NCBI GenBank assembly: GCA_963674965.2
Contig: CAXXFL010000001.1
Location: forward strand, 1,504,001 to 1,568,000
Reading direction: 5' to 3'
Length of the DNA stretch: 64,000 nt
DNA from: a bacterium
GTDB lineage: Bacteria > RBG-13-61-14 > DATKZS01
Position numbers and translations under genes: made by a program. This document shows, in pieces, positions 13,428-31,893 of the stretch. Positions within the stretch are counted from its first letter, which is position 1. Each line of letters starts with the position of its first letter. The notes under the pieces were generated by a model, which did no database searches, had not been told where the DNA came from, and saw only the letters and a list, made by a program, of their open reading frames with translations.

Positions 13428-14651
13428 TTATAATCGCGACCGTTCGTCCGGCGAGAGCGCCTCGTGGGTTTTCCTCGCGATCTCAAGCTCCTCGTTGGTC
13501 GGTATGACCAGCGCTTTCACGCGCGAGGCCGGCGAGCTTATCTCGCGGGCCTCATGGCCGGGCTTTTCGTTTTTCTCCCGGTCCAACTCTAGGCCGAGAC
13601 ACTCGAGGCCCTCGAGGCAGGCGGCCCTTATTTCCGGGGAGTTCTCGCCAATGCCGGCGGTGAAAACGACCGCGTCGGCCCCGCCCAGGGCGGCCATGTA
13701 GGCGCCGATGTATTTCTTGACCCGGTAGGCGTAGACCTCGAGGGCGAGGGCCGCGTCGCCGTCGCCCTTGGCCTTTCGGGCAAGGATTTCCCTTACGTCG
13801 TTCTCGCCGCAAAGTCCCTTCAGGCCGCTCCTTTTATTGAGGGCGTCGTTTATCTCGTCAAGACCCATGCCCGCGTTCGAGGCAAGGTGGAAGACTATCG
13901 AGGGATCGACGTCGCCCGATCTCGTTCCCATGACCAGCCCCTCGAGCGGCGTCATGCCCATGGAGGTGTCGATGCATTTGCCCTTTTTGATCGCGGCCAT
14001 GCTGGCGCCGTTTCCCAGGTGTATGGTTATTAGCGAGACTTCATCCGGCTTTTTGCCCAGCATCCGGGCCGCCAGTTCCGAGACGTGTCCGTGCGACGAG
14101 CCGTGGAAGCCGTAGCGCCTTATCCCGAACTCGATGTATAACTCCGGGGGCAGGGCGTAGCGAAAGGCCCGGGCGGGCATGGTCTGGTGAAAGGCCGTGT
14201 CGAATACCGCCACGTGAACGGCCTTGTCGAACACGGACATGGCCACCTCGATACCGACCAGGTTGACCGGGTTGTGAAGAGGGGCGAGGGCAAAGTTACG
14301 TTTGATGGCTTCGATGACGCGGCCATCGATGATGGCGGGTCTTACGAAGTCCTCCCCCCCGTGGACCACGCGATGTCCAACCGCCTCGACCTCGGAGGCT
14401 GCGGTTAGCACTCCCGTCTCCGGGTCCGTGAGCGCGTCCGCCACCAGCCTCATCCCGCTCCGATGGTCGGGCGCGAGCCTTTCACCGGACTTTTGCCTCA
14501 CCTCGCCGTCGCGAAGGAAGGTCGCCGTGAGGGCGCTGGTTTCCTCCCCGATCCTCTCGAGCACGCCCGAGGCAAGGACTAGGTTTCCCGCCATGTCGAA
14601 AAGCCGGTACTTGATCGAGGAGCTTCCCGTGTTGATAACCAGTATTTTCAT
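13428..14651 (-). CDS. ackA: Acetate kinase
   Basis: NTGSSSIK, GHRVVHGG, APLHNP, RRYGFHG, HLGNGAS, FTAGIGEN, PTNEE. Confidence 0.95.
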   Translation of the reverse strand: MKILVINTGSSSIKYRLFDMAGNLVLASGVLERIGEETSALTATFLRDGEVRQKSGERLAPDHRSGMRLVADALTDPETGVLTAASEVEAVGHRVVHGGEDFVRPAIIDGRVIEAIKRNFALAPLHNPVNLVGIEVAMSVFDKAVHVAVFDTAFHQTMPARAFRYALPPELYIEFGIRRYGFHGSSHGHVSELAARMLGKKPDEVSLITIHLGNGASMAAIKKGKCIDTSMGMTPLEGLVMGTRSGDVDPSIVFHLASNAGMGLDEINDALNKRSGLKGLCGENDVREILARKAKGDGDAALALEVYAYRVKKYIGAYMAALGGADAVVFTAGIGENSPEIRAACLEGLECLGLELDREKNEKPGHEAREISSPASRVKALVIPTNEELEIARKTHEALSPDERSRL

Positions 14652-14672: not shown

Positions 14673-15545
14673 TTAGCTCGCCACCCGGGCGAACCCGGCC
14701 AGGGCCGTCTGGCCGCTCGCGTTAACGGCGTTGAAGCAAAGTACCGTCGAGTTTTTCTCGGGCCTCCTCTCGAGAAGGTTCACTTGAAAAGTCGTGCCCG
14801 GGATTATCATGCCGGTGAAGCGGCAGGCGATCTCCTTTAACCTGTCCGGGTCCTTGCCCGCTTCCCTCTCGACCAGTTCCCTGGCGCACATGGCGAGGGT
14901 GCAGGTGCCCTGCACAATTATATCCGGCAGACCCACGGCCCGGGCGAAGGCGGGCGAGGTGTGAATGGGAAAGACGACGTCCGAGCATCCGTCGTAAAGG
15001 TAAGGCGTCGCCCTGGTCGTCGGTACCGCGGCGGTCCACTCGGGCTCGGCTGCTTCACCGGCGACGGTCGGAATTACCTCTCGCTCTCCCGCGCTCTCAC
15101 CTTTCAGCTTAACGCCCCTGAACATGGCCCCGTTGTACTCGGTAAAAACGGGTTGGCCCTTTTTGTCCAGGGCCTCGATCCGCAGCACGAACAGGACGCC
15201 GGCCCGGGTCTGGATGACCGAGGAAACGCTTCCCCTTAGAAGTATCTCGTCTCCCGGCAGAACAAGCCGATGGAACACTATCCGCTCGGTGGCGTGGACC
15301 ATGGTCGAGACGACCTCCCCGGGTATGCGGTCGGAGAAGACCTCGTTCATGGCCATGGCCATGGGCCAGGTAAGGGCAACCGCGAAGAGGGGAGGGGCAA
15401 CGAGCCCGCCCTGTGACGAGTCGTCGAAGTAGCGGGGATTGTCCTCACCCGCGGCCGCCGCGTAGTTGGTGGTCATCCGCCATGTGACCTCCCGCCTGAT
15501 CTCGGGAAGCGCCGCCCCGTGGATGCTCGAGTCGAGTTCCGGCAT
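14673..15545 (-). CDS. MaoC-family double hot-dog dehydratase/(R)-enoyl-CoA hydratase
   Basis: YAAA.GEDNP.Y, APPLFAV, SD..FPIHT...A...GLP..IVQG; GGAGG RBS. Confidence 0.8.
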   Translation of the reverse strand: MPELDSSIHGAALPEIRREVTWRMTTNYAAAAGEDNPRYFDDSSQGGLVAPPLFAVALTWPMAMAMNEVFSDRIPGEVVSTMVHATERIVFHRLVLPGDEILLRGSVSSVIQTRAGVLFVLRIEALDKKGQPVFTEYNGAMFRGVKLKGESAGEREVIPTVAGEAAEPEWTAAVPTTRATPYLYDGCSDVVFPIHTSPAFARAVGLPDIIVQGTCTLAMCARELVEREAGKDPDRLKEIACRFTGMIIPGTTFQVNLLERRPEKNSTVLCFNAVNASGQTALAGFARVAS

Positions 15546-16499: not shown

Positions 16500-17693
16500 T
16501 CATTCAGTCTTTTGTCCGCAGTTGGGGCAGAACTTGGCGCCGGGCTCCAATTCGGCCTGGCAGTTTTTGCACTTGGGTTTTTCAAGGAGGTTGAACCCGC
16601 AGTTTCCGCAGAACTTGTTGGTCGAGAGGACGGCGGCCCCGCAGTTGGGGCATTTGAGTTCCTCGGCCATTTTCTCTCCGCAGCTCGGGCAGAACTTGGA
16701 CCCCGCGGGGACGGACCCCTGGCACTTGGGGCACGCGATGGCGGCGACCGCGCCGGCGGCGGCCCCGGACGCTCCCGCGGCGGCCGTTCCCGCGCCCTGG
16801 GTTTGTCCCTGGGCCTGTCCCGGGTTCATCATTCCGCCCATGGCCTGGGCCATCATGCCGGGCATCATCATGCCCATGCCCGCGCCCACGCCTATTCCCA
16901 TGCCCGCGGCGGCGGCCCCGCCTCCGCCTTCTCCCCTGGCCGCGTCCCTCATGCTCTTGGCGGCCTGGAACTGCATGAACTTGTTCATGTCGCCCACGGC
17001 GGCCATGCTCGAGCGCTCGTCGATCATCTTCTGCACTTCCTCGGGAGGGGTGATGGCCTGGATGAAGAAGTCGCGCAGCTCGAGGCCGTACTGGGTGAAG
17101 TCGGGCTCGAGCCTGTCGGTCTTGAGATGGAAGGCCAACTCGTCGTAGCTCTGGGGCAGGTCGAAGACGCTCTCGACCCTCTCGCCCAGCACGTCGTTGA
17201 ACCTGGCCACGATCACGTCCTTTAGATAACGCTGGACGTCGTCGGTCTCGTACCTGCCCATGCCGCCTACCAGGTTGTTTATGACCAGGAGGGGTTCCTT
17301 GACCTGCATGGTGAAGTTGCCGAAGGCCCGGAGCCTGACGATGCCAAGTTCCTTGTCGCGGAAAGCCACGGGCTCCTTGGTCCCCCACTTGAGGTTGGTG
17401 AAGACCTTCATGTTCACGAACATGACCTCGGTGCGGAAGGGAGAATTGGGACCGAAGCCGGCTATTTTCTTCAGGAGTCCGGTTAAAATCGGAAGGTTCT
17501 GGGTGCTCAGGGTATGGCGGCCGGGCCCCAGGACGTCCATGCCCTTGCCGTCGCGGAAGAACACGGCCATCTGGTTCTCGCGCACGATGAGCTGGCTGCC
17601 GTACTTGGTTTCCGCCGATCCCTGCTCGGGCACGCGATGTACCAGCTCCTCGCCGGTGGGGTCCACGTATTCGATTATATCAAGCATTGCCAT
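16500..17693 (-). CDS. SPFH-domain protein with C-terminal zinc ribbons (YdjI-like)
   Basis: GSQLIVRENQMAVF, GPGRHTL, KWGT.EP, LRAFG; Gly/Met-rich linker; six CxxC. Confidence 0.88.
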   Translation of the reverse strand: MAMLDIIEYVDPTGEELVHRVPEQGSAETKYGSQLIVRENQMAVFFRDGKGMDVLGPGRHTLSTQNLPILTGLLKKIAGFGPNSPFRTEVMFVNMKVFTNLKWGTKEPVAFRDKELGIVRLRAFGNFTMQVKEPLLVINNLVGGMGRYETDDVQRYLKDVIVARFNDVLGERVESVFDLPQSYDELAFHLKTDRLEPDFTQYGLELRDFFIQAITPPEEVQKMIDERSSMAAVGDMNKFMQFQAAKSMRDAARGEGGGGAAAAGMGIGVGAGMGMMMPGMMAQAMGGMMNPGQAQGQTQGAGTAAAGASGAAAGAVAAIACPKCQGSVPAGSKFCPSCGEKMAEELKCPNCGAAVLSTNKFCGNCGFNLLEKPKCKNCQAELEPGAKFCPNCGQKTE

Positions 17694-17721: not shown

Positions 17722-18246
17722 TCAAACCGCCTTGGGCAGGACCGTGGAGGAATATTGCTCGCGCTGGCCCAGCTTCTCGTCGAACTCGGCAAGGGCGTCC
17801 TCGAAGTCCATCAGGGCCTCCTTGACGCTTATGGAGGGGTCGCTGATGGACTCCTCCGCCAGGCGCTGAAGCTTCTCGACGTCGTCGAAGAGTTTCTCGT
17901 CGAAGTCAAGGAGGGCCATCAGGTCGCGCTCGGTCACCTCCTGGGGATCGAAAAGTCCCTGGTACCCTCTCGAGTCGTACTTGATGGTGTCGCGGACCTT
18001 GCGAACGCGCTTGCAGACGCGGTCGAGCCGGTCGAGTCCCTGGAGGGCGGCCATGCCCTTTGCCTGGCTTCTGGCGTCCGAGGCCTTGGCCACGGTCTTG
18101 GCCAGCTTGTCTACCCTCTTTACCAGCTCGTCCCGAATCTCCTTGTCCGCGTCGCGCAGGTTTTCCCTGGCGAGGTAGGTCTTAAGGCCGGGGACCTTGT
18201 TCTGGGCCCAGCTTTCGAGCCTCTTTGGCAGGCTTGCATAAGTCAT
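17722..18246 (-). CDS. Conserved helical hypothetical protein in the SPFH cluster
   Basis: VPG...Y..RENLRDADK and RGYQGLFD motifs; AAGGAGG RBS; co-oriented with the SPFH gene. Confidence 0.7.
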   Translation of the reverse strand: MTYASLPKRLESWAQNKVPGLKTYLARENLRDADKEIRDELVKRVDKLAKTVAKASDARSQAKGMAALQGLDRLDRVCKRVRKVRDTIKYDSRGYQGLFDPQEVTERDLMALLDFDEKLFDDVEKLQRLAEESISDPSISVKEALMDFEDALAEFDEKLGQREQYSSTVLPKAV

Positions 18247-18314
18247 GTAACGCCCTCCTTGCTATGATCGGTTTAGTCCCGTTGTCTCGCGGGCCTGAGT
18301 CTTCATGGCGGCCG

Positions 18315-18968
18315 TCATTTTTCCTTGAAACCGGGTTTGACGTACTCGCCGCCGGACTGAATATATTTATAGGCCGCCTCCATGTTGACGGGCAGGTTGT
18401 CGCGCGTGAGTTTTTTCATGACGAACTCGGGTATGATCGAGGTCACCTCGACCCTGGTGCCGTACCTGGCCAGGGTGCGCTTGTCGTCAAGCTTGAAAAG
18501 TTGCCAGTATCCGTCCACCTGTTTCATGTCGTTGTCGAAATCGGGGTCCAGATGCCACCACAGCTTGTAGTTTTCCTCGTCGTAGTGATGCATGATCCGG
18601 TAGTCGATATTCAGGATCAACTTGACGTGGAAGTCCACCTTGTCGCCTTTGTCGTCTCTCTGGACAAGCTCGCAACTATCCAGGTCCGGCAGGTATCGAT
18701 GCTGTTTCTCCGTGGCCTTGAAAAGTTTCCAGGTCTTCTCGAGCGGCTGATCGAATATCATGGCCGCCCGGATGAAGCGCTTCTGGTCCGCCCCCTCGCT
18801 TTTGTCCTCGTCCAGGATGACTATCTCGCCGGCCTTGACCTTTTTAACCTGGTCCTCGGTAAGGCCCTCCCAGGCCTGGGGAGAGTCCGCCGAAGGCGGG
18901 TCCGCCCAGGCGCAAAGACCAACGGCCAGGACCAACGCGACAAATCCGAACCTTATAAGTTTAATCAT
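18315..18968 (-). CDS. Exported SRPBCC/START (polyketide cyclase-like) lipid-binding protein
   Basis: Signal peptide; PLEKTW..., YLPDL, NDMKQVDGYWQL, IPEFV. Confidence 0.7.
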   Translation of the reverse strand: MIKLIRFGFVALVLAVGLCAWADPPSADSPQAWEGLTEDQVKKVKAGEIVILDEDKSEGADQKRFIRAAMIFDQPLEKTWKLFKATEKQHRYLPDLDSCELVQRDDKGDKVDFHVKLILNIDYRIMHHYDEENYKLWWHLDPDFDNDMKQVDGYWQLFKLDDKRTLARYGTRVEVTSIIPEFVMKKLTRDNLPVNMEAAYKYIQSGGEYVKPGFKEK

Positions 18969-19266
18969 GCCCCGATCAATGCCTCCTTGTTTCGATCATC
19001 ACGAACAATAATAACTTACGGATCGGGACCGGGCAAGGACTTCGAGCTTGGAAGCGCGATTTTTTCCCCTCTCCCGTCTCACCTCCCGTCTCGGATTGCC
19101 AGTTCCGGGTCGGCGGTGTAAAATCGATCTTGATAATTCCGCCACGCCTTCCGCGGTAAAAGTCCCGAAACCAATCCAATCAAAAGGGGCGTTTATCTTT
19201 TCGCGTGACGATATTTTCAGGCGTCAGCGCGCGCGCTCCGGATCGATTTTTCCTGGAGGGCGAGCC

Positions 19267-19295
19267 TTGACACGGCCGTTATTAGGGCCTATATT
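19267..19295 (+). promoter_or_regulatory. Sigma70-type promoter for the activase-plsB operon
   Basis: TTGACA, 17 nt, TATATT. Confidence 0.65.
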
Positions 19296-19443
19296 CGTAA
19301 AAACTAGACTGGGGTGTCATTTTTTGAGGAACGGGTTTTCGCGCGTCATCATCCGCGGGGCTGGGGTCATCGAGTCTTTCCCGCCCATCGATATTTTTCG
19401 GCGCCCTCCTCTCCCCGGATAAATTGGTTTAAGGAGGCGGCAA

Positions 19444-22400
19444 ATGACTGTAAAAAACGGGCGGTCCCTCGGCATAGACGCGGGCAGCCTTTACGTAAAG
19501 GTGGCGGCGCTGGACGCTTCCGGCGCTCTTTTGGACTCGGCTTACGCGGCCCACAAGGGGCGTCCCATCAAGGCGCTTAAGGAAATCCTTCCCGGGTTCC
19601 TTGACGGCGTCGCTTTCAAGGTAGGCCTGACGGGGGCCCTTATCGATCCCATTTGCCGCCAGTTGGGCCTGGACTCTATCGACCTGGTCCGGGCCGAGGT
19701 GGCGGCGGTCAAGGCCAACGTCCCGGAGGTAAGGAATATTATCGACGTGGGCGGCGGCAGCGTGACGCTTATCCGTCTCAACGAGAAGGGCGAGTTCGAG
19801 AGCATGGAGCGCAACTCCCTTTGCGCCGCGGGCACGGGCTCCTTTCTGGACGAGCAGGCGGCGCGCCTTGGCGTCAGCTACGAGGAGATCGAGTCCTTCG
19901 GCGCGGTGGACGAGCCGCCCAGCATCGCCACCAGGTGCGCGGTCTTCGCCAAGTCGGACCTCATCCACCACCAGCAGGCGGGCCGGAGCAAGGTCGAGTG
20001 CTGGTCCGGTCTTTGCCGGGGCATGGTAAGCACTTTCCTCGGCACCCTGCTCAAGGGCCGTCCCCTAAAGGGCCTGACGGTCATGGTGGGCGGCGTGGCC
20101 CAGAACCCTGAGATCATGAGGTGGCTCAAAGATATTTACGGCGACCGGATCACGACCTTTCCCGAGGCCCGGATGGCGGGGGCCATCGGCGCCGCCATGA
20201 TGGCCGCGGATGAATTGTCGCCCGAGAAGCTGGCGGCCCTGGTACCGGGCGAGGGCAGGGGAGAGAGCCGGGCCCTGGCCACTCGTCCTCCCCTCGAGCT
20301 CAAGAAGTCCAGGTACCCCTCCTGGGAGGTCGAGGAAAGCTACACCGACTCCCTGGCCAACGAGGTCCGCGTGACCAGACTGCCGGCCGGGCCGGCGGTC
20401 GAGTGCTACATGGGCATCGACGTGGGCAGCACCAGCACCAAGCTTTTAGTCTCCGATCTCGAGGGCGACGTTCTGTGCGACGTTTATCGCAAGACGGGCG
20501 GAGACCCCATCGGGGCCACGCGGGACCTTTTCATCGCGCTCATGGACCTGGAGAAGAAGCGCGGGCTCAAGTTCGAGGTCAAGGGCTGCGTGACCACTGG
20601 CTCGGGCCGCAAGATGGTGGGTCTCGTGATCGGGGCCGACGACGTGATCAACGAGATATCCTGTCACGTGAAGGGCGCCATGCACGTGGACCCGGAGATC
20701 GACACCATATTCGAGATAGGGGGCCAGGACTCGAAGTACATGCGCACGCAAAAGGGCAAGATCAAGGACGCGGCCATGAACTACGTTTGCGCGGCGGGCA
20801 CGGGCTCTTTCGTGGAGGAGGTCGGGCGCAAGCTTGGCTACGAGGTCCACAAGATCGGGGAAGCCGTGATGGGCATAGCCCCGCCCCACACCTCGGACCG
20901 ATGCACGGTCTTCATGGACCAGGACGTGAGGCGTCTTCTCCGGGCCGGTTACACCAAGGACGAGGCCCTGGCGGCGGTGCTTTACTCGGTGGTCCAGAAC
21001 TATTTGAACAAGGTCGTGGCCAGGCGCTATTACTCGAGGGAAAAGATTTTCTTCCAGGGCGCCACGGCCCGCAACCCCGGACTGGTGGCCGCCTTCGAGA
21101 ACCTCCTTGGCGTCGAGATGGTGGTCTCGCCCTACGCCCACGTCATGGGCTCGTGGGGAGCGGCCCTTCTCGCCAAGGACATGATGGAGAAGGCCGGCAA
21201 GTCCTCCACCTTCAGGGGACTTAACCTGGCCGACAGAAAGATCGAGCTTTACGCCGAGCGCTGCGACCAGTGCGTGAACAACTGCGAAATAACCTTCGCC
21301 AGGATCGAGGGCGTCGAGGAGACCCCCTCCTGGGGATACATGTGCGGCCGCGAGCCGGGCGAGAAGAAGAAGAACGTGAGGGAGTTCCGGCTTTTCGCCG
21401 AGCGGGAGAAGATGCTCCGGGACATTGGGAAGGTCAAAGCCAAGGAGGGCGCGCCCACGGTGGTTATACCTCGGGCCCTCTCGATGTTCACCTATCTTCC
21501 CACCTGGCGGCGTTTCCTGGGCGAGCTGGGACTCAAGGTGGTCGTCTCGCCCGTGACCAACGCCCTGATCAAGAAGCTGGGCACGGAGATTTCGGGCGGC
21601 GACTTCTGCTTTCCCGTAAAGGCGGCCCTGGGCCACGGTCGCTGGGCCTTCCAGGAGGTGGAGGCCGACTGGGTGTTCATTCCCCACACCATCAGCAACG
21701 AGCCTAACGAGCACACCAGCAACTCGCTGTTCTGCCCCTACGTTCAGTCTTATCCTTCCCTGGTCAAGACGGCCCTCGAGCTTCACGGCGTGGACGCGAG
21801 CAAGCTCCTGGCCCCGGTGATGGACCTGCGCTGGAAGGACAAGAAGACGGTCTCCGAGCTTTACGAGAACGTGGGCAAGAGATTGGGCAAGACCCAAAAG
21901 GAGGTCAAGAAGGCCTGGGAGGCCGCCCTCGAGAGCCAGCGCGAGTACGACCGGCGCTGCCGGGAGGAGGGGAAAAAGGCCCTGGCCGAGATCGAGAAGG
22001 AGGATAAGCCCGCGGTCTTGATCCTGGGCCGTCCCTACAACACCTGCGACGTGGGAATCAACCTGGGCCTGGCCCGCAAGATAGCCGAGCGGGGCCACAC
22101 GGTCATCCCTCTGGACTTCGTGCCCTTCGATCCCTCCGAGCTGGGCCAGGAGTTCTCGAACATCTACTGGAACTACCCGCAGCGAATCATCCACGCGACC
22201 AAGACGCTTCGCGGCAACAAGCGGATTTACCCGGTGTACTTCACCAACTTCAACTGCGGTCCCGACAGCTTCATCGAGACCTACGCCGAGCGCATCTCGG
22301 GCGACAAGCCCCTGCTGGTGCTGGGCCTGGACGAGCACGACGCCGACGCGGGCTACATCACCAGGATCGAGGCCTTCCTCGACGTGGTGGAGAACACGAC

Positions 22401-23691
22401 CGGTTACGACGATTTTCCCGGCGTTTACTTCCCCAAGGACTCGGACGAGGAATTCAAAAAGCGCGTCATCTGGATACCCCGCATGCACCATGTGGGGGCC
22501 GAGTTCGGCGCGGCCGCCTTCCGGGCCATGGGCTACGACGCCCGGGTACTGCCCCTCGAGACGGACGAGAGCTTCGAGGTGGGAAGGGGACTTACCTCGG
22601 GCAACGAGTGTCTGCCCACGGTGGTGACCATCGGCGCCATGGTGGCCAAGCTAAGGGAGATGGACGCCAAACCCGGCGAACACGCCTTTTTCATGGCCAC
22701 GGCCGACGGCCCCTGCCGTTTCGGCCAGTACGCTCTAAAGCATCGGATGATCCTTAACGACCTGGGCTACAAGGACGTGCCCATCATGTCTCCCTCGGCC
22801 CTCAATTCCTACCAGGGGCTTCCCGAGGCCCTGCGCCGGCAGGTGTGGCATCTTTTCGTGGCCTCTGATATATTGATGAAGCTAAGGTGCAAGGTGGCCC
22901 CTTACGAGGTTAACGCGGGCGAGACGGCCCGGGTCCTCGAGGAGGAGGTCGTCCGTCTGGCGGGGGTAATCGAGAAGAATGGCAATTTCGACGACGAGTG
23001 GGTAAAGTCTCTTAAGAGGATAAACTTGATCGAGCAAACCGGCGGGCCGCGAAAGCCGCTGGTGGGGATAGTCGGCGAGATTTACGTCCGGTGCAACTCC
23101 TTTACCAACGACAGGGTCATCGAGTCGATCGAGAGCTATGGGGGCGAGGCCTGGCTCACGCCCTTGTCGGAGTGGTTCATTTACACCGCTCATATGCAGA
23201 ACTGGAGGGCCAAGGAAGACCTTCGAGGCATCGTTTTCCGCGGCCAGAGCCTGATCAAGAACCGCTTCATCCTGGGGGTGGAGCATGGGCTTTACAAGAA
23301 GGCGGCGGCCTTCGTTGACGACCGTAAAGAGCCGCCCATTGAGGAGGTCCTGGAGGCCGGCAAGAAATACCTTCCCCTCAACTTCGAGGGCGAGGCGATC
23401 CTGACGGTGGGAAGGACGGTCAAGTTCATAGAAGACGGCGCGAAGATGGTAGTGAACTGCGCTCCCTTCGGATGTATGCCGGGAACCATTTCCGGCGCGC
23501 TGTTCCAGGAGATACAGAACAGAACGGGAGTTCCCGTTGTCAGTATGTTTTATGACGGTGAAGGCGACCTCAACAGCCTGCTCGGAATATACCTGGCACA
23601 GCTTGGCGACAGGGGAGACGAGGGTATAAGAGGGGGAACCCAACATGGCGGGTTCAAAGAAAAAGTCAAAGAGGGGGAAGCTCTTAGGTAA
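19444..23691 (+). CDS. Multidomain CoA-substrate activase/reductase fusion (PlsA/Ger-like; 2x BcrAD/HgdC ATPase + DUF2229 + HgdB-like)
   Basis: GIDAGS and GIDVGSTSTK, two CAAGTGSF, two RC.VF, EIGGQDSK; CFPVK, NCGPDSF, GPCRFGQY, GIVGEIYVR, PFGCMPG. Confidence 0.9.
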   Translation: MTVKNGRSLGIDAGSLYVKVAALDASGALLDSAYAAHKGRPIKALKEILPGFLDGVAFKVGLTGALIDPICRQLGLDSIDLVRAEVAAVKANVPEVRNIIDVGGGSVTLIRLNEKGEFESMERNSLCAAGTGSFLDEQAARLGVSYEEIESFGAVDEPPSIATRCAVFAKSDLIHHQQAGRSKVECWSGLCRGMVSTFLGTLLKGRPLKGLTVMVGGVAQNPEIMRWLKDIYGDRITTFPEARMAGAIGAAMMAADELSPEKLAALVPGEGRGESRALATRPPLELKKSRYPSWEVEESYTDSLANEVRVTRLPAGPAVECYMGIDVGSTSTKLLVSDLEGDVLCDVYRKTGGDPIGATRDLFIALMDLEKKRGLKFEVKGCVTTGSGRKMVGLVIGADDVINEISCHVKGAMHVDPEIDTIFEIGGQDSKYMRTQKGKIKDAAMNYVCAAGTGSFVEEVGRKLGYEVHKIGEAVMGIAPPHTSDRCTVFMDQDVRRLLRAGYTKDEALAAVLYSVVQNYLNKVVARRYYSREKIFFQGATARNPGLVAAFENLLGVEMVVSPYAHVMGSWGAALLAKDMMEKAGKSSTFRGLNLADRKIELYAERCDQCVNNCEITFARIEGVEETPSWGYMCGREPGEKKKNVREFRLFAEREKMLRDIGKVKAKEGAPTVVIPRALSMFTYLPTWRRFLGELGLKVVVSPVTNALIKKLGTEISGGDFCFPVKAALGHGRWAFQEVEADWVFIPHTISNEPNEHTSNSLFCPYVQSYPSLVKTALELHGVDASKLLAPVMDLRWKDKKTVSELYENVGKRLGKTQKEVKKAWEAALESQREYDRRCREEGKKALAEIEKEDKPAVLILGRPYNTCDVGINLGLARKIAERGHTVIPLDFVPFDPSELGQEFSNIYWNYPQRIIHATKTLRGNKRIYPVYFTNFNCGPDSFIETYAERISGDKPLLVLGLDEHDADAGYITRIEAFLDVVENTTGYDDFPGVYFPKDSDEEFKKRVIWIPRMHHVGAEFGAAAFRAMGYDARVLPLETDESFEVGRGLTSGNECLPTVVTIGAMVAKLREMDAKPGEHAFFMATADGPCRFGQYALKHRMILNDLGYKDVPIMSPSALNSYQGLPEALRRQVWHLFVASDILMKLRCKVAPYEVNAGETARVLEEEVVRLAGVIEKNGNFDDEWVKSLKRINLIEQTGGPRKPLVGIVGEIYVRCNSFTNDRVIESIESYGGEAWLTPLSEWFIYTAHMQNWRAKEDLRGIVFRGQSLIKNRFILGVEHGLYKKAAAFVDDRKEPPIEEVLEAGKKYLPLNFEGEAILTVGRTVKFIEDGAKMVVNCAPFGCMPGTISGALFQEIQNRTGVPVVSMFYDGEGDLNSLLGIYLAQLGDRGDEGIRGGTQHGGFKEKVKEGEALR

Positions 23692-26341
23692 CTTCCTTAT
23701 TAATAAAATACTGGGAGGCTCGCTCGATCATTACGGAAACGAGATCTCCGACGTTCACGGAATCGTATCCGGCGGGCTTTTCAAGAAGTTTTTCGACAAG
23801 ATAGCCATCGAGCCGGAAAAGGTCGAGAAGCTAAGATACTTCGCGGAGCGGGGAAGGCTCATCTACGCCCTTCCCCGCCGGAGTCCTCTGGACTTCTTTT
23901 TCCTTAACATACGACTGCGTTTTTCGGGCGTTCCCGTTCCCGAGATAGCCTATAACACGCCGGTATATCGGTTCCAGCCTCTCCGCAAAGTATTCAAGGT
24001 CGGCCTGTCCCGTTTCCTTCAGCTTATTAACTTCGGCCGGTTCTCCGATCCTTATTTAAACAAGTATTACCTGAAGAGATATCGCGACGGCGCCGGGTTC
24101 GTGCTCAATCTCGAGGACCCCGCGAGCTTCACCGCTCGCCTAATAAATCCGACGCGCGATCCCATCTATCATCTTGTCAAGCTTTATAGAAAGCACGGTG
24201 AGACGGTTATAATAGTTCCCATTTTCCCCGTTTTCGGCAAGAGCCCGACCCGAGCGAAAAGAAGACTCTGGGATATATTTATCGGGCCCAAGGACCGGCC
24301 CGGAAGGCTGCGGAAGATAGTCCATTATATTCATTATTACAACGAGGCCTTCATCGAGGTGGGCGATCCGGTCACCATCGACCGCTTCCTGGCCCGCAAG
24401 GACCAGGAGGGCCTGACCGACGAGCGGATTGCCTTTAATATCAGAAAGGAATTATGGGACCACTCCCAGCGGGAGCAGAAGGTTATTAGGGGACCGGAAT
24501 TAAGGCCCCGCACGCAAATAATGGAGTCAGTGCTTCGGGACCCGGAAATCCTGCGAGTCATGCGGCAGGAGGCCAAAAAGCGCGACAAGCCCTTTCGTTC
24601 CATCCGCAAGGAGGCGGCCAAGTACATGGACGAGATCGCCGCCAATTACTCCCATACCACCATCGAGTTCCTCGACTGGGCCCTGGCCTGGGTGTGGAAC
24701 AATTTATTCGACGGGGTCCATGTCGACGAAAAAGGACTGGCCCGCTTAAAGGAAGCCGCCAAGCGTTACCCGGTGATATACGTGCCCAGCCACAAGAGTC
24801 ACCTGGATTACCTGATTTTATCCTGGGTCCTTTATCACGCGAACATGGTCCCGCCTCACATCGTGGCGGGAGTCAACCTGGACACGTGGCCCATTGGGTT
24901 TATTTTCCGCACGGCGGGCGCTTTCTTTATACGCAGGTCCTTCCGGGACAACGCCCTTTACGGCGCGGTGTTCACCAAGTACGTCGAGGTACTGATAAAG
25001 GGCGGCTATAACATCGAGTTTTTCATCGAGGGGGGCAGGAGCAGGACGGGTCGACTTCTCATCCCGACCATGGGCATGGTCAAGTATATCATCAAGGCCT
25101 ACGAGCACGAGGCGGCCAAGGATATAATGTTCGTGCCCCTTTATATCGGCTACGACCAGATATTCGAGGAAGGAGAATATCTTGAGGAAATCAGGGGAGT
25201 TAAGAACCCTAAAAGCAATCTGTTCGAGATGATCCGTAACGCCAACCTGATTACGAAGCGCTACGGCCGGATTCACATCCGCTTTGCCGAGCCCATCAGC
25301 CTCCGATATCACCTCGAGTGCATGAGCGACCGGCTGGAGGGCAAGCTCGAGGAGAACGAGGGCCTGGTCATTACCGAGCTGGCCGAGGACATTATCCAGG
25401 GAATTAACAGGAACCAGGTGGTCACGCCCTTCTCTCTCATGGCGGCCGCCCTTTTAGCCTCGCCGGCCAAGGCCATCAGCCGGGAGGAACTGCTTAACGC
25501 TCTTGCCCTTTATTTCCAGTACCTGGCCGACGCGGACGCGAAGTTCGCCGTCACGCTCGAGAATTTCACCAAGGCCATGGACGACGTCATCGGCTATTAT
25601 CGGGAAAGGAAACTCATCGAGATCGAGGGAGAAGACGAGGCCGACGATTCCTTCGAGCCCATCTACACGCTGCCGGAGGAAAAACGGTTATCCCTTAACA
25701 TGTACTCGAACATGATCCTGCACCATTTCCTGCCCATGTGTTTCGTGACCATGAGCCTTCTTTCCGCCGATTACGGAACATGCGACGAGCAGAAGCTAAA
25801 GTGGGACTATGGCTTTTTAAAAGACCTGTTCAGCTTCGAGTTCGTTCAAGACGAGCGTTTCACGGACAAGGAAAAGATCGAGCGTTGCGTCAGGTTCCTC
25901 CAGAACGGAAGGCTTCTCGAGGCTTTCACCGAGGACGGCCACGGCCACTACAGAGTTACTTCCAAGGGCAGGGAGGAGATGGTGTATTTCGCGTCCATGC
26001 TCACCAACTTCCTCGAGGCATATGGAGTTGTGCTTAACGCGTCGGATATATTGGAGAAAAAGGCCATGACCGAGAAGGAGTTCCTGGCCAAGCTGAGAAG
26101 GACCGGAAACAGGCTTTACAAGCAGGGACAAGTGCTTCGGCGTGAGGCCATATCCCAGCTTCTTTTCAAGAACGCGATTAAGTTCTCCATTAATAATGGA
26201 ATTTTAACCAAAGTCCCCAACGACGGAAAGCCGGAGCTATTGACCAAGGGCGGAAAAGAATCCGATGACGCCAAGAACCAGTTGTTAACGCACATCTCGA
26301 AGTTTATTCGGGTCGAGAAATATCATTACCTGGAGAAATGA
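23645..26341 (+). CDS. plsB: Glycerol-3-phosphate O-acyltransferase
   Basis: PSHKSHLDY (HxxxxD), GAFFIRRSF, FFIEGGRSRTG, VPLYIGYD; 898 aa; overlaps the upstream gene by 47 bp. Confidence 0.88.
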   Translation: MAGSKKKSKRGKLLGNFLINKILGGSLDHYGNEISDVHGIVSGGLFKKFFDKIAIEPEKVEKLRYFAERGRLIYALPRRSPLDFFFLNIRLRFSGVPVPEIAYNTPVYRFQPLRKVFKVGLSRFLQLINFGRFSDPYLNKYYLKRYRDGAGFVLNLEDPASFTARLINPTRDPIYHLVKLYRKHGETVIIVPIFPVFGKSPTRAKRRLWDIFIGPKDRPGRLRKIVHYIHYYNEAFIEVGDPVTIDRFLARKDQEGLTDERIAFNIRKELWDHSQREQKVIRGPELRPRTQIMESVLRDPEILRVMRQEAKKRDKPFRSIRKEAAKYMDEIAANYSHTTIEFLDWALAWVWNNLFDGVHVDEKGLARLKEAAKRYPVIYVPSHKSHLDYLILSWVLYHANMVPPHIVAGVNLDTWPIGFIFRTAGAFFIRRSFRDNALYGAVFTKYVEVLIKGGYNIEFFIEGGRSRTGRLLIPTMGMVKYIIKAYEHEAAKDIMFVPLYIGYDQIFEEGEYLEEIRGVKNPKSNLFEMIRNANLITKRYGRIHIRFAEPISLRYHLECMSDRLEGKLEENEGLVITELAEDIIQGINRNQVVTPFSLMAAALLASPAKAISREELLNALALYFQYLADADAKFAVTLENFTKAMDDVIGYYRERKLIEIEGEDEADDSFEPIYTLPEEKRLSLNMYSNMILHHFLPMCFVTMSLLSADYGTCDEQKLKWDYGFLKDLFSFEFVQDERFTDKEKIERCVRFLQNGRLLEAFTEDGHGHYRVTSKGREEMVYFASMLTNFLEAYGVVLNASDILEKKAMTEKEFLAKLRRTGNRLYKQGQVLRREAISQLLFKNAIKFSINNGILTKVPNDGKPELLTKGGKESDDAKNQLLTHISKFIRVEKYHYLEK

Positions 26342-26421
26342 CGGCGAGGATTCGGCTTTTTGGTCTTCGGTAACCCTTTTCATGGTTTTGTATCTCTTAT
26401 AAAGCGAAAGGGGTTGAGATA

Positions 26422-26856
26422 ATGAGCGGACACGTACATATACCATGCGGTTCTTGCGGCGCGGTAAACAGGGTGATCCGGGAGAAACTGGACAATTCGC
26501 CAAGGTGCGCTAAATGTAAAACGGGAATCAAACTGGACGCTCCCTTTTCCGTAAACTCATCACAATTCGATAAGGTCGTCAAGGAATCGGACATGCCCGT
26601 GCTGGTGGATTTCTGGGCGCCATGGTGCGGACCTTGCCGCATGATGCACCCGGTGCTCGAGGAAATCGCCAGAAAATGGGCGGGAAAGGTTATGGTGGTC
26701 AAGTTGAACACGGACGAGGCCCAGGACGTGGCCGGGAGGTTCGGTATTCAGGGTATTCCCACCCTCATTTATTTAGCCAATGGCCGGGAGATCGAACGCA
26801 AGGTCGGGGCCGTCAGCGCCGAGGCCGTGGACGCTATGATCGGACGGGCAATATAA
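26422..26856 (+). CDS. trxC: Thioredoxin 2 with N-terminal zinc domain
   Basis: CGSC...CAKC, DFWAPWCGPC. Confidence 0.9.
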   Translation: MSGHVHIPCGSCGAVNRVIREKLDNSPRCAKCKTGIKLDAPFSVNSSQFDKVVKESDMPVLVDFWAPWCGPCRMMHPVLEEIARKWAGKVMVVKLNTDEAQDVAGRFGIQGIPTLIYLANGREIERKVGAVSAEAVDAMIGRAI

Positions 26857-27094
26857 TCTTGACAATTAATCCGGACAATGAGTCAAGATTTTATTCCGAT
26901 TACGTGAAATTTCCCCAGAATCGGCTATTCTCGAATATTAGCGGCAAGGCAAATATCGCCCTTTAAACGTCCGAGCGATAATGCCGTAAACCTCACTGGA
27001 TGAATTTTCGACTTATACTGTTTGCGCCCCATTTTGCGGCGACTGATAATCTGGTCGGCAAAAAGGGACGAGTAAAGTTCCCGGCGGTTATAAA

Positions 27095-30000
27095 ATGAAT
27101 AGAGATGGCGGGAAAGTGAAGTCCGAATCGGACGACTTCCTTTCAATTAAAAAAAATTCCAGCAACCATGACTCCTCCCCCAAGGCAACGGACGGAGCCC
27201 GCGAGCTTGCCCCTGAAGTCTACCGCGCCTTGTTCGACTCCGCCGAGGACGGCGTTCTCTTGATGAAACGAGACGTGGTAATCGACTGCAATCCCAGACT
27301 TCTAGAGATATACAAACTGACCAGGGAAGAGGCCATCGGCAGCACTCCTCTCGATTATTCTCCCATTCTTCAGATTGACGGAAGTCTATCCGAAGAATTG
27401 TCTCAGGCAAGAATCGACGCGGCCCTGGCCGGAGAAACCCAGCTTTTCGAGTGGATAAACGTCAACGGCCTGGGCGAGCCCCTTTGGGTTGAGGTCATGC
27501 TTAAGCGATTGGAAGCGGACGAGGATCAATTGGTTTTCGCCGTAATCCGCGACGTCACGAAAAGGAAATTCGAGGAGGAAAAGGAAAGAGCAAGAGCGCG
27601 CGCCGTCCGCGAGCGTCACGCGGTAATAGTTGAACTGGGAAAGGACGAGCGTCTTATCCAGGGGGACCTAGTGGGTTTTGCCAAGCGTCTTTGCGAGGCC
27701 GCCGCCGAGGCCATCGAGGTCGACAGGGTCGGGCTGTGGACGCTAAAGGACGAGGGAAGGGTGCTCGAGTGCATGAACATGTACGAGCGCTCTCCCAAAA
27801 AACACTCCAGCGGCCAGTCAATTGACGCCGGGGAATACCCGAGCTATTTTCAAGCGCTCGAGACGGGACGGGCCATACAGGCCGACAATGCTCCTCTCGA
27901 CCCCCGATTTTGCGAGCTTAAGGATTCTTACCTTATTCCTAACGATATAAAGTCGATGATGGACGCGCCCATACGAATATCGGGAAAAGTCGTGGGCGTC
28001 GTGTGTCACGAGAGCGTGGGCAAACCGATAAAATGGCATGGAGACGAGATCGCCTTCGCCGGAGAGATAGCCGATCTGGCCGCCATCGCCATGATCAATG
28101 AGGACCGGATGAGGGCTGAGGAGGCCCTGCGCGCCAGCGAGGAAAAATACCGGCTTTTATTCGACGCCTCTCCCGAGTCCATTACCCTCGTGGGGCTTGA
28201 CGGCCGGATAATGGACATGAATCCCGCCAACGACGACCTGTTGGGCTATAACCAGTCCAATACGGTGGGCAGACCCTTCATGGATCTGGAAAGCATCGAT
28301 CCCGCGGAACTGCCTCGGTTTATCGACGTTTTCCAGAGGCTGGTAAAAGGAGAAAAAGTCGAGCCCATCGAGCTGAAAACGGTGGACGCCAAGGGCAATC
28401 CCCGGTGGATCGAGTCCTATCCCAGTCCCCTGAAAAGAGGAGGCGAGGTATACGCCATCCTGGTCGTCTCTCGTGAGGTTACCGAAAGAAGGAACGCCGA
28501 GGAAGCCATCCGGCGCTCGGAAATCGAATACCGCGCAACCATCGACGCCATGCGAGACATGATCCACGTGGTGGACCAGGACTTGAAGATCATTCTGGCC
28601 AACGCGTCGATTCTGAGGGCCTTGAGCGAATTCGGCTACTCCACCGACGTGGAGGGCAAGACGCCCTTCGACCTTTTCCCTTTTCTTGACGACACGGTTC
28701 GCCGGGAATATGAAGAGGTCTTCAGGGATGGTAAAGCGCTTGTAACCGCGGAGTCCTTCATCATCGGGGGAAAGGAAAAATTCAGCGAGACGATTAAAAT
28801 TCCGATCCATGACGGATTTATGGTTAAGAGAGTTTTGACCGTTATTCGCGACGTGACGGAAAAAAAGATGGCCGAGAAGGCCCTTGTACGGAGCGAGGCC
28901 AAGTACCGGGAGTTGGTGGAAAACGCCAACAGCATCATCCTCAGGATGGACCCGGAGGGCAAGGTGACTTTTTTCAACGAGTTCGCCCAGCGCTTTTTCG
29001 GCTTCTCCGAGGAGGAAATCCTGGGCAGGAACGTGGTGGGAACGATCGTGCCCGAGACCGACGTGACCGGCCGGGACCTTCGGATTATGGTCCAGGACAT
29101 CGGCCGCAACACGGACCTATATCGAACTAACGAAAACGAGAACGTCAAGCGCGACGGGGAGAGGGTGTGGGTCGCCTGGACGAACAAGGCCGTTTGCGAC
29201 GCCGATGGGAATATCGTCGAGATACTTTGCATAGGAAACGATATCACCTCGAGAAAGCGCGCGGAAGAGGAAAGAGTGAGGCTCGAGCATCAGTTGCAGC
29301 AGGCGCGAAAACTTCAGGCAGTGGGACAGCTCGCCGGAGGCGTGGCCCATGACTTCAATAACCTGCTCACCCCGATCCTCGGTTACTCGGAGATGATCCT
29401 GGCCAACCTCAAAAATGACGACGCGGCCGCCGAGGGTATAAAGGAGATCAGGGAGGCCGCCTTTCGCGCCCGCGACCTGACCCGGCAGCTTCTGGCCGTG
29501 AGCCGCAAGCAGGTCATTCAGATGAAGGTCATTAATCTTTCCAGGGTCATTACCGGCATGGAAAAGATGCTGACCAGGACCATAAGGGAAAACGTCGAGA
29601 TTAAAATTGAAATCGAGACGGACCTGAAAAACGTGAAAGCGGACCTATCTCAGATCGAGCAAATTATTCTGAACCTCGCCGTTAACGCCCAGGACTCGAT
29701 GCCCGACGGAGGGACCATGTGGATCAAGGCCGGCAACGATTTCATTTCAAGGGATAGGCGGGAGGAGTTCCAGGACCTTAGGCCGGGTAACTACGCCGTA
29801 ATTTCAGTGATCGACACGGGCGTGGGCATGGATGAGGAGACCCGGGAGAGGGTCTTCGAGCCCTTCTTCACCACCAAGGACATGGGCAAGGGCACCGGCC
29901 TGGGCCTGGCCACCGTTTACGGGGTGGTCAAACAGCATCAGGGCCACGCCTTCGTCGCCAGCGAGCCGGGAAAAGGATCGACCTTTAAAATATATTTGCC

Positions 30001-30430
30001 CGCCGTGGACCAGGAGGCCCATTCGGGAATGGAAGAAGGCTCGCCGTCCGCTGAGAGGGGAAGCGCGGAAAGGATTATGGTGGTGGAGGACAATGAGCAG
30101 GTCCGGGAACTGACAAGGGAAATACTCGAGCATTACGGATACGAGGTCATCTGCGCGGCGGACGCCGAGGACTGCATGAAAAAGCTGGGCCGGGAACGGC
30201 GAGGAATCGACGTTCTTCTTACCGACGTTATTATGCCCAGGATGAGCGGAAGAGTTCTTTATGAAAAGCTTTCCCCCCAGATGCCCGGCCTTAAAGTGAT
30301 ATATATGTCGGGATACGCCGACAATGAACTGGCCCATCACGGCGTGGCCGATGGGAAGACGAACTTCATCCAGAAACCCTTTTCAGTGGACGATCTTATT
30401 AACATGGTTCGGGAGACGTTGAAGGAATGA
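27095..30430 (+). CDS. Cytoplasmic hybrid histidine kinase (PAS-GAF-PAS-PAS-PAS-HisKA-HATPase-REC)
   Basis: [50 protein letters not shown]; exact start uncertain. Confidence 0.92.
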
Positions 30431-30633: not shown

Positions 30634-31893
30634 ATGGACCCCAAACAAAAAGAAGAGACCAAACTCCTTGAGGAGGAGGCCGATTTTTCCGATACAATGG
30701 AAACGCCGGAGGAACCGGATTTCGAGAACGCCGAGCCCATTGACCGGTTTTTATGGCTCGGCCTGACCGAGGACGCGGCCAAGGGAGCGGTTGAAGCCGG
30801 CTTCGAGGCCCCCACCGAAATCCAGCGTAAAGTCATTCCCGCCGTGGTCGAGGGTTACGACGTGGTCGCCTGTTCCGAGACGGGAAGCGGCAAGACGGCG
30901 TCCTTCGCGCTTCCCATCCTGGACAGGATTCGATACAGCTCGCCTTTTGTCCAGGTGCTGGTGCTGGTCCCCACTCGAGAGCTTTGCCGCCAGGTGGCCG
31001 AGTCCTTCCGGGAGCTGGCGGGAGGACATAAGGTCAAGGTGGCCGAGATTTACGGCGGCATGAGCTACACGGGACAGCGCAGGGCCTTGGCCGACAAGCC
31101 TCAGGTGGTGGTGGGCGCCCCGGGAAGAGTGCTGGACCTGATGGGATCGCGCGACCTGGATTTTAAAGACGTGGAAATACTGGTGCTGGACGAGGCCGAC
31201 CGCATGCTCGACATGGGCTTCATGCCCCAGATTTCCGAGATCATCGCCAAGGTGCCCATGGAGCGGCAAAACCTCATGTTTTCGGCCACCATCCCCGAGC
31301 AGGTCTCGAGGTTCGTGAAGCTATGCCTGTCGGACCCCGTAAACATCGTGGTGGGAACAAGGACCAGGCCGCCCGACCGGGTTATCCAGCAGGCCCTGGA
31401 CGTTATGCCCTCGGAAAAGGACGCCAGGCTGGTCGAGATTGTGGCCCAGGAGCCGGGTACCATACTGATTTTTACCGCCACCAAGGTGGGCGCCGACAAG
31501 GTGCACAGGCTTTTGGTCAACGCCGGACAGAAGGCGTGCGTCATCCACGCCGACCGGGCCCAGGCGGAAAGAAAGAAGTCCCTTGACGGTTTTTCCTGTG
31601 GCAAGTACCGGATCATGGTGGCCACAGACGTGGCCCAAAGAGGACTCGACATATCGGGCATATCTCTCGTGGTCAACTACGACCTGCCCAACACGGTCGA
31701 GGACTACGTTCACAGAATAGGAAGAACGGGAAGGGCAAACACGCCCGGCCGCGCCCTCTCCTTGGTTACCTACAAGGAATACGCGCTGATTAAGAATATC
31801 CAGAAGGTGACCGGACACAAGTTCGAAAATTTCGGACCGCCCGGCCGGATCATGGATAGAAGGGCCAACTTGAAAAGAAGAAAGCGAGACTAA
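30634..31893 (+). CDS. DEAD-box RNA helicase
   Basis: Q motif, TGSGKT, PTREL, DEAD, SAT, RGLD, HRIGRTGRA. Confidence 0.95.
   Translation: MDPKQKEETKLLEEEADFSDTMETPEEPDFENAEPIDRFLWLGLTEDAAKGAVEAGFEAPTEIQRKVIPAVVEGYDVVACSETGSGKTASFALPILDRIRYSSPFVQVLVLVPTRELCRQVAESFRELAGGHKVKVAEIYGGMSYTGQRRALADKPQVVVGAPGRVLDLMGSRDLDFKDVEILVLDEADRMLDMGFMPQISEIIAKVPMERQNLMFSATIPEQVSRFVKLCLSDPVNIVVGTRTRPPDRVIQQALDVMPSEKDARLVEIVAQEPGTILIFTATKVGADKVHRLLVNAGQKACVIHADRAQAERKKSLDGFSCGKYRIMVATDVAQRGLDISGISLVVNYDLPNTVEDYVHRIGRTGRANTPGRALSLVTYKEYALIKNIQKVTGHKFENFGPPGRIMDRRANLKRRKRD

Follow-up and report, generated by a model that had tools for sequence, protein, structure and literature searches.

The window analysed here is a 64,000-nucleotide stretch of a bacterial contig (CAXXFL010000001.1 of assembly GCA_963674965.2, positions 1,504,001 to 1,568,000 of the forward strand), and the locus coordinates below count from its first letter. 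It carries two overlapping plus-strand genes that are the subject of this report: one of the ger/plsA family (hereafter ger), named after the glycerol ester reductase Ger and the plasmalogen synthase PlsA/PlsR, and one of the plsB family (hereafter plsB). Their products are called P0001 (1415 amino acids, aa) and P0002 (898 aa). An earlier note on this DNA had described a 1415-aa open reading frame (ORF) that overlaps plsB by 47 bp behind a single good promoter, and both the ORF boundaries and the promoter match are as it had claimed. The features of the locus are as follows.

19267..19295, plus strand: sigma-70-like promoter ahead of both genes, TTGACA-17 nt-TATATT, with 11 of 12 positions matched
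19432..19438, plus strand: Shine-Dalgarno sequence of ger, AAGGAGG, 5 nt ahead of the ATG at 19444
19444..23691, plus strand: ger/plsA-family gene for a predicted single-chain, ATP-driven [4Fe-4S] ester reductase of 1415 aa (P0001), from ORF, domains, homologues and trees
19465..20223, plus strand: activase domain 1 (residues ~8-260), PF01869 and TIGR02261, with invariant C127 and C165
20410..21180, plus strand: activase domain 2 (residues 323-579), PF01869 at 324-577, with invariant C449 and C487
21262..21345, plus strand: Cys-rich stretch C607-x2-C610-x3-C614...C634, invariant in 14 and in 29 aligned relatives
21364..22404, plus strand: module 1 like 2-hydroxyacyl-CoA dehydratase/benzoyl-CoA reductase (HAD/BCR; residues ~641-987), with DUF2229 inside it and invariant C722, C764 and C938
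22495..23613, plus strand: putative HAD/BCR-like module 2 (residues ~1018-1390), from profile alignment, with invariant C1056, C1091 and C1344
23645..23691, plus strand: overlap of the ger 3' end and the plsB 5' end, 47 bp in different frames, from the ORF coordinates
23645..26341, plus strand: plsB-family glycerol-3-phosphate acyltransferase (GPAT) gene, 898 aa (P0002), from ORF, Pfam and structure match
24791..24808, plus strand: HX4D catalytic motif HKSHLD (residues 383-388), present in 31/31 PlsBs compared
26422..26856, plus strand: thioredoxin-2-type gene (trx2), from Pfam, 80 bp 3' of plsB

The two genes stand on the same strand with no room between them for a promoter or a terminator, and the single promoter lies upstream. 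The divergent gene ahead of ger (18315-18968, minus strand) leaves a 475-nt spacer that holds this promoter, which ranks best among the 8 promoter-like sites in 18900-27200 (2.8 ± 1.8 sites in shuffles). An Rfam search of 18000-27500 returned zero families at E ≤ 0.1, and no riboswitch accounts for the spacer. In addition to the Shine-Dalgarno sequence of ger, a ribosome site, GAGGGGG, is found ~9 nt 5' of the plsB ATG. PlsB relatives align with P0002 from residue 5-17 onward, which shows that the plsB start was not produced merely by taking the longest ORF. We infer that the translation of ger and plsB is coupled across the overlap, and because the plsB start codon lies inside the end of ger, Ger and PlsB would be made together.

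Pfam detects two stretches of PF01869 (BcrAD_BadFG, 204 bits) in P0001, followed by PF09989 (DUF2229) at residues 672-893 (188.6 bits), and these form the BBD core of two activation domains and one reduction domain. The two activase halves are clear duplicates (hhalign probability 99.9%, E 8e-33), which bears out the two activase domains of the earlier note, and domain 2 matches MbdQ, HadI and HgdC in the Protein Data Bank (PDB) with E values from 2e-33 to 4e-28. The invariant pairs C127/C165 and C449/C487 fall at the positions that we take to hold the bridging [4Fe-4S] cluster in HgdC-type activators. The Cys-rich stretch C607...C634 may be a metal or cluster site. The sole NCBIfam label of P0001 is 'acyl-CoA dehydratase activase', and its relatives are named either so or 'CoA-substrate-specific enzyme activase', just as the note had expected of automated annotation, which it thought would see only a CoA activase.

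For the remainder of the protein (residues 596-1415), we used a structure model based on 29 aligned relatives (predicted local distance difference test, pLDDT, 84.9; predicted TM-score, pTM, 0.85). The top Foldseek matches of the model, all with a probability of 1.00, are a double-cubane cluster protein, (R)-2-hydroxyisocaproyl-CoA dehydratase and the benzoyl-CoA reductases BzdNO and MbdON. In VIA-align comparisons, residues ~641-985 superpose on the 2-hydroxyisocaproyl-CoA dehydratase 3o3n_B with Z 14.8 (root-mean-square deviation 4.0, 269 residues aligned), on BzdNO (8s02_B) with Z 14.3 and on the double-cubane protein 7yzm_A with Z 13.9. Module 2 (1018-1390) aligns with module 1 at the profile level only (hhalign 67%, E 5e-5, 284 columns), and the cysteine triads of the two modules are in register (C722/C1056, C764/C1091 and C938/C1344). 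It has zero Pfam matches at E ≤ 0.01, and in the whole-model fold comparison it found only generic alpha/beta matches with Z 9.2 or less. Of the two reductase/dehydratase-like domains that had been proposed, the first is thus confirmed by its fold, while the second is a putative one that the profile alignment suggests.

The PlsA/Ger-type architecture that had been read from the sequence is present in that the BBD core is there, and according to the available text of the study that identified Ger, this core is conserved in all alkyl-ether producers while the remainder of the protein is variable (Sahonero-Canavesi et al. 2022, PMC13159169). In the same text, Ger of Thermotoga maritima (Tmari_0479) and of Desulfatibacillum alkenivorans (SHJ90043), described as a 'modified PlsA', produces 1-O-alkyl glycerols in anaerobic E. 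coli; its authors called Ger homologues at E ≤ 1e-50 and a coverage of ≥ 30%. Like P0001, these enzymes are single chains of ~1400 aa with two BcrAD_BadFG domains, then DUF2229 and a further HAD-like part (putative in P0001); they come from anaerobic hosts and their public label is only 'CoA activase'. Ger alone also yields diethers, as Hopmans et al. 2024 report in the accessible part of their paper (PMC11150832). PlsA/PlsR, the plasmalogen synthase, is a sister function and is encoded by one fused gene in facultative anaerobes, as far as the available texts describe it (PMC12838417, PMC9702350). It consists of CPE1194/1195 in C. perfringens and of a single gene in Enterococcus, Lactococcus, Bifidobacterium and Listeria, and shares with P0001 the superfamily, the collinear domain order and, with the P0001 family, an oxygen-sensitive Fe-S/ATP chemistry on the sn-1 ester.

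Of 8,000 proteins scored against P0001, 7,554 are homologues at E ≤ 0.001; most of the 120 listed are full-length, and the best matches (68-73% identical) come from metagenome bacteria. A homologue search that started from a Thermotogaceae MAG locus (L043) gave metagenome proteins of Spirochaetota and Bacteroidota but no T. maritima entry. As PlsA-type stand-ins, named by taxon, we took homologues on chromosome-sized records in a plasmid collection, from Listeria monocytogenes, Acetoanaerobium, Collinsella, Haliovirga and Paraclostridium, and all five are 24-30% identical to P0001. A FastTree phylogeny was calculated from 67 rows, namely P0001, 14 extra sequences and 52 of 80 surveyed loci, the 28 partial, split or over-long loci being omitted. 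It places P0001 in a clade A (27/67 rows) together with its class relatives, Myxococcota, a Syntrophales metagenome-assembled genome (MAG) and spirochaete MAGs. The sister clade B (35 rows) contains Desulfobacteraceae, Syntrophaceae, Desulfocarbo, Nitrospirota, Chloroflexota and Planctomycetota, with Paraclostridium as its earliest and a long branch (1.79), and the other four stand-ins form an outgroup clade (support 100) outside both. An IQ-TREE phylogeny of 39 chosen rows (clade A minus one long branch, nine clade B sequences and the four stand-ins; a paralog on contig C3 of the source genome, Paraclostridium and L062 were omitted as long branches) gave the same arrangement, with clade A (26/39 rows) at an SH-aLRT of 100, clade B at 99 and the stand-ins outside both. 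This placement in clade A beside clade B, whose sequences are ~35-38% identical to P0001, puts P0001 nearer to the deltaproteobacterial-type than to the Firmicutes-type enzymes.

Several further observations concern the family. A radical SAM gene of ~320 aa stands directly upstream of ger on the same strand at six clade B loci (L038, L056, L057, L059, L061 and L078), which group with Thermodesulfobacteriota. Among their records, two bear the title Deltaproteobacteria and a third delta proteobacterium. By the accessible text of the 2022 Ger paper (PMC13159169), membrane-spanning lipid synthase is a radical SAM enzyme too. At ten loci (L040, L051, L053, L057, L058, L060, L068, L069, L070 and L076), ger is split after ~1000-1160 aa into two ORFs, which resembles the two-gene PlsA/PlsR form. 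TetR-family regulators adjoin ger/pls genes at L008, L012, L017, L022 and L104 (Collinsella); a TetR gene upstream of pls is described as typical of facultative anaerobes in the available text of PMC9702350, whereas the window has none. A pattern scan of metagenome contigs with P0001 matched 159 stretches, among which there were 0 relatives.

In P0002, Pfam finds PF01553 at residues 373-501 (87.5 bits) and PF19277 (GPAT_C) at 512-856 (215.3 bits), both above their cut-offs, and the protein matches the bacterial GPAT 9vuq_E in the PDB with E 6e-83. The glycerol-phosphate-binding motifs FIRR (at 428) and EGGRS (at 462) accompany the HX4D motif, so that P0002 has PF01553, GPAT_C, HX4D, FxxR and EGGRS in common with E. 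coli PlsB (b4041; PDB 9vuq). It differs from that enzyme in that its gene start is embedded in the end of ger and in that it scores below the cut-offs of both NCBIfam PlsB equivalogs (NF003441, 478.7 against 610; TIGR03703, 468.6 against 618.5). Over residues 188-708 it shares 32% identity with E. coli PlsB, so that P0002 is a divergent PlsB on both counts, and the match to the PlsB models does not extend to its first ~170 residues.

The role of this PlsB was judged from the source genome (G000; 6.5 Mb, 7 contigs, 97.6% complete) and from the 13 genomes of the window's class (G000-G012), where 'class' and 'order' denote groupings of the genome collection and related genomes are not independent observations. 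The source genome encodes one PlsB, a PlsY and five further PF01553 acyltransferase matches, and PlsX was not found in it with either Pfam or TIGR models. Across the class, PlsB is present in 13/13 genomes and Ger in 11/13, Ger not being found in G009 and G010 even though both have PlsB, and PlsX was not found in 12/13. The single PlsB, the missing PlsX match in 12 genomes and the occurrence of PlsB without Ger suggest that PlsB of the source genome is probably the general, housekeeping sn-1 acyltransferase. For this genome, the dedicated acyltransferase of the earlier note is thus not supported. A side observation is that PlsY (C2:143612-144148) is encoded in the source genome although PlsX, the maker of its acyl-phosphate substrate, was found neither there nor in 12/13 genomes of the class overall.

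We then asked how widely ger and plsB are linked. Among the 11 Ger-bearing genomes of the class, the two genes are linked in six, unlinked in four, and undecidable in one (G004), where contig ends cut both ger and plsB. In family f1 (G000, G001, G002 and G003), plsB directly follows ger on the same strand, and the longest ORFs overlap by 47, 86, 68 and 50 bp, respectively. In family f5 (G011 and G012), plsB follows ger after gaps of 16 and 14 bp, and a PF01553 gene of ~285 aa (PlsC type) stands directly upstream of ger, which gives the order plsC-like, ger, plsB. Together with a second order described below, this shows that the adjacency is not unique to this genome; its uniqueness would have been one of the grounds that the earlier note had named for dropping its proposal.

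The wider survey covered 80 diverse Ger loci, with at least 3 kb of sequence downstream in 45 and upstream in 48. PlsB was close to Ger in one of the 80 (L022), and among the immediate neighbours of Ger no acyltransferase of the PlsB/PF01553 kind was found in the 64 upstream or 62 downstream neighbours scanned. The linkage is therefore confined to certain lineages. L022 is from a MAG titled Leptospira biflexa, and in it a divergent TetR gene is followed by a PF01553 gene, plsB and ger.

We sampled 81 genomes of this second order (Leptospira-titled MAGs; the order of G041) with a threshold of ≥ 50% identity for a Ger ortholog. The ortholog is present in 48/81 genomes and PlsB in 80/81. A same-strand PlsB lies within 700 bp of the Ger ortholog in 10 of the 48, a count from coordinates compared by hand that may miss pairs split by contig breaks. 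PlsB is upstream in nine of these ten (gaps of 92-171 bp) and downstream in one (665 bp), and a plsC-like gene precedes the pair in seven, giving the order plsC-like, plsB, ger. An extra PlsB is encoded elsewhere in 8/10 of the linked genomes, while only 1/71 of the others has two full PlsBs; the linked copy in this order is usually an extra, presumably dedicated paralog. A 31-row PlsB tree, with E. coli as the outgroup, unites all 20 PlsBs of the second order in one clade (100), separate from those of the window's class, and the linked copies appear at no fewer than three places inside the clade of their own order (≥ 3), indicating duplications within the order. All linked PlsBs keep HX4D. 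Mapping the linkage on the Ger tree requires at least three changes. Since the PlsB stocks and the gene orders differ, the linkage arose independently.

Ger-type genes are common in the second order, many of the 48 genomes having 2-4 paralogs. According to a review (PMC9131029), Leptospira possesses a functional CarF/PEDS1 desaturase, but it is not clear where its alkyl-ether precursor comes from, and Ger could be a candidate for that source.

A scan of 18900-27200 showed no convincing terminator between plsB and trx2. We considered trx2 as a conserved third member of the operon and rejected it, since the ORFs 3' of plsB differ in G001-G003; trx2 probably lies outside the conserved ger-plsB unit. 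On the minus strand upstream, the window contains an acetate kinase gene (13428-14651; Pfam/NCBIfam), a gene for a double-hotdog MaoC/HadAB-like dehydratase (14673-15545), an SPFH/Band-7 protein with zinc ribbons (16500-17693) and an LIMLP_15305-family protein (17722-18246); downstream follow a GAF/4xPAS hybrid histidine kinase of 1111 aa (27095-30430) and a DEAD-box helicase (30634-31893). The dehydratase is the only one of these neighbours that is possibly lipid-related.

The source genome encodes DsrA (597 bits against a cut-off of 393) and DsrB, and a haem-copper oxidase (COX1) was not found in it. An oxygen-sensitive P0001 fits such a host, which by its gene content appears to be an uncultured sulfite-reducing anaerobe. 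Short contigs nearly identical to 22586-22840, 23747-24015 and 25225-25414 occur in wastewater metagenome and metatranscriptome runs of one study, so the source organism or a very close relative seems to live in wastewater, although the depth is low and the evidence thin. Two of these contigs are from the metatranscriptome, one of 255 nt (22586-22840, 2 differences) and one of 190 nt (25225-25414, 0 differences). Both have a low depth, and DNA carry-over is possible; we did not count them as evidence of transcription, and the stretches without coverage carry no information in either direction.

From the locus, the domains and the recurrence of the pairing, we consider it rather likely that ger and plsB form one operon that serves the sn-1 position of membrane glycerolipids. 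P0001 would belong, as a single chain, to the Ger/PlsA branch of the 2-hydroxyacyl-CoA dehydratase/benzoyl-CoA reductase superfamily. Its tandem activase domains would act as a built-in pseudo-dimer, presumably holding one [4Fe-4S] cluster through C127/C165 and C449/C487, and ATP hydrolysis would push a low-potential electron from them into the cluster or clusters of the two HAD-like modules. These modules would reduce the carbonyl of the sn-1 acyl ester of a glycerolipid to an ether, a chemistry suggested by the family, and P0002, whose gene would be on the same transcript as ger, would make 1-acyl-glycerol-3-phosphate (1-acyl-G3P). Since PlsB is most likely the sole sn-1 acyltransferase, such an operon would tie ether formation to bulk lipid synthesis and not to a private supply. 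In our estimate it is likely that one transcript from the 19267 promoter encodes the coupled reductase and housekeeping PlsB, for constitutive sn-1 ether lipids.

A similar logic, acylation first and then the ether, is known from eukaryotic GNPAT + AGPS and from bacterial elbB-elbE. Those routes use unrelated chemistry and enzymes: AGPS puts a fatty alcohol in place of the acyl group, ElbD is a reductase of several domains, and neither route involves a HAD/BCR radical enzyme. A 2026 preprint, in its accessible part, places glycerol-3-phosphate acyltransferase genes beside some elbD clusters (10.64898/2026.06.23.733905). For Ger itself, the available texts of PMC13159169 and PMC11150832 mention no acyltransferase neighbour. 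Our literature searches, which covered article full texts, found no published ger-plsB linkage, and this agrees with the earlier note, which knew of no description of a coupling of Ger/PlsA and PlsB.

Several points weigh against this proposal. The linkage is not general: PlsB lies near only one of the 80 diverse Ger loci, and in G005-G008 (families f2-f4, of the same order) ger and plsB are on different contigs with other neighbours, which implies that neither gene needs the linkage. No contig of the RNA library crosses the ger/plsB junction, those found lying inside ger and inside plsB. The membership of P0001 in the Ger group is argued from architecture, fold and an identity of ~35-38% to clade B, the tree rows including no validated Ger, PlsA or PlsR, and P0001 falls in the separate clade A. 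The validated Gers were counted as BBDHDDH and BBDHDHDH in the available text of PMC13159169, whereas residues 596-1415 of P0001 contain no PF06050 'H' domain at E ≤ 0.01; PF06050 is nevertheless not a strict criterion for Ger, since the C-terminal part varies according to the authors and among the homologues in Table S21 of PMC13159169, that of the ether producer Edaphobacter aggregans consists of BBD only. Finally, the source genome has a second BBD-type paralog, the one on contig C3 (1535 aa; C3:548860-553465, L101:4861-9465), which is ~27-32% identical to P0001 and forms a long branch, so either copy, or neither, may make ether lipids; one of two D. alkenivorans paralogs was inactive in E. 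coli, by the accessible text of Hopmans et al. 2024 (PMC11150832). Next to the C3 paralog are genes for an Fe-alcohol dehydrogenase, an acyl-CoA dehydrogenase and a CGGC-domain protein, and an integrase gene lies close to the end of the contig; the substrate of this paralog may differ from that of P0001.

Of the alternatives, the one that survives best, although we consider it doubtful, is that P0001 is a plasmalogen synthase of the PlsA/PlsR type, which would stop at the vinyl ether and not proceed to the saturated alkyl ether. The ether lipids reported from anaerobic sulfate reducers are alkyl ethers, not plasmalogens, which counts against it. In layout and length P0001 resembles the fused PlsA genes (4,248 bp in E. 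faecalis K-4, in the available text of PMC12838417), and no published sequence rule separates the two products, a 2026 paper only hypothesising the roles of the homologues in its accessible part (PMC13274423). However, the homologues from Listeria, Collinsella, Acetoanaerobium, Haliovirga and Paraclostridium share only 24-30% identity with P0001, a branch with 100% support parts it from four of them, and the relatives closer to it come from Myxococcota, Thermodesulfobacteriota and Acidobacteriota.

It is unlikely, in our view, that PlsB is dedicated to ether synthesis and passes 1-acyl-G3P directly to the reductase, so that a private route or complex would form the ether on newly made lysophosphatidic or phosphatidic acid. 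The tight stop/start overlap of ger and plsB and the order plsC-like, ger, plsB in G011/G012 speak for it. So do the linked genomes of the second order, where the linked PlsB is an extra copy in eight of ten and mostly comes together with a plsC-like gene, as one would expect if the module were dedicated. Against it stand the single PlsB of the source genome and the class, the failure to find PlsX in 12 of the 13 genomes and the presence of PlsB in G009/G010, where Ger was not found. Moreover, a search of longer proteins with PlsB yielded one unrelated eukaryotic multidomain protein and no Ger-PlsB fusion, weak evidence because long proteins are poorly sampled. Hopmans et al. 2024, in the accessible part of their paper, also favour phosphatidylglycerol (PG) and phosphatidylethanolamine (PE) over a precursor as the substrate of Ger, a hypothesis based on the head-group-specific ether content (PMC11150832). 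It runs counter to the idea that Ger works early, on 1-acyl-G3P or phosphatidic acid supplied by its partner PlsB and then PlsC, as a de novo 'ether-phosphatidic acid' module and not by remodelling completed PE or PG, which we also hold improbable. Just as doubtful is the corollary that such a module was assembled twice, as ger-plsB or plsC-ger-plsB in the class and as plsC-plsB2-ger in the second order. If this were true, supplying the reductase would be the specialised task of the linked PlsB paralogs.

Very improbable, finally, is an adjacency without functional meaning, in which P0001 would act on a non-glycerolipid ester or thioester and plsB would merely lie downstream: clade A has no identifiable experimentally tested member, the neighbours of Ger are otherwise heterogeneous (0/64 and 0/62 such acyltransferases) and the C3 paralog adjoins acyl-CoA and Fe-alcohol dehydrogenases, but the pairing arose independently in two lineages with different PlsB stocks and gene orders, a second glycerolipid acyltransferase was recruited in both, and an overlap or short gap is kept across two families.

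Returning to the operon of ger and a housekeeping plsB, the convergent linkage of ger to plsB, the gene of the sn-1 acyltransferase, and in many cases to the plsC-type gene of the sn-2 enzyme, is good contextual evidence that clade A enzymes act on glycerolipids, and it indicates that co-expression of Ger with the first acylation steps is under selection. Ether lipids of bacteria weaken the 'lipid divide' that sets bacteria apart from archaea, and sediment biomarkers in wide use are based on them. Ger has been known only since 2022, and its discoverers still call its true substrate 'hypothetical' in the available text of PMC11150832. In this context, the linkage of ger to the first two acyltransferases of phospholipid synthesis, which evolved repeatedly and once with a duplicated PlsB, hints at the step of lipid synthesis where the ether bond is made. 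The gene context also provides evidence independent of homology that clade A, misannotated as 'CoA activase', acts on glycerolipids, and it points to a little-known lineage of sulfite reducers as a probable ether-lipid source.

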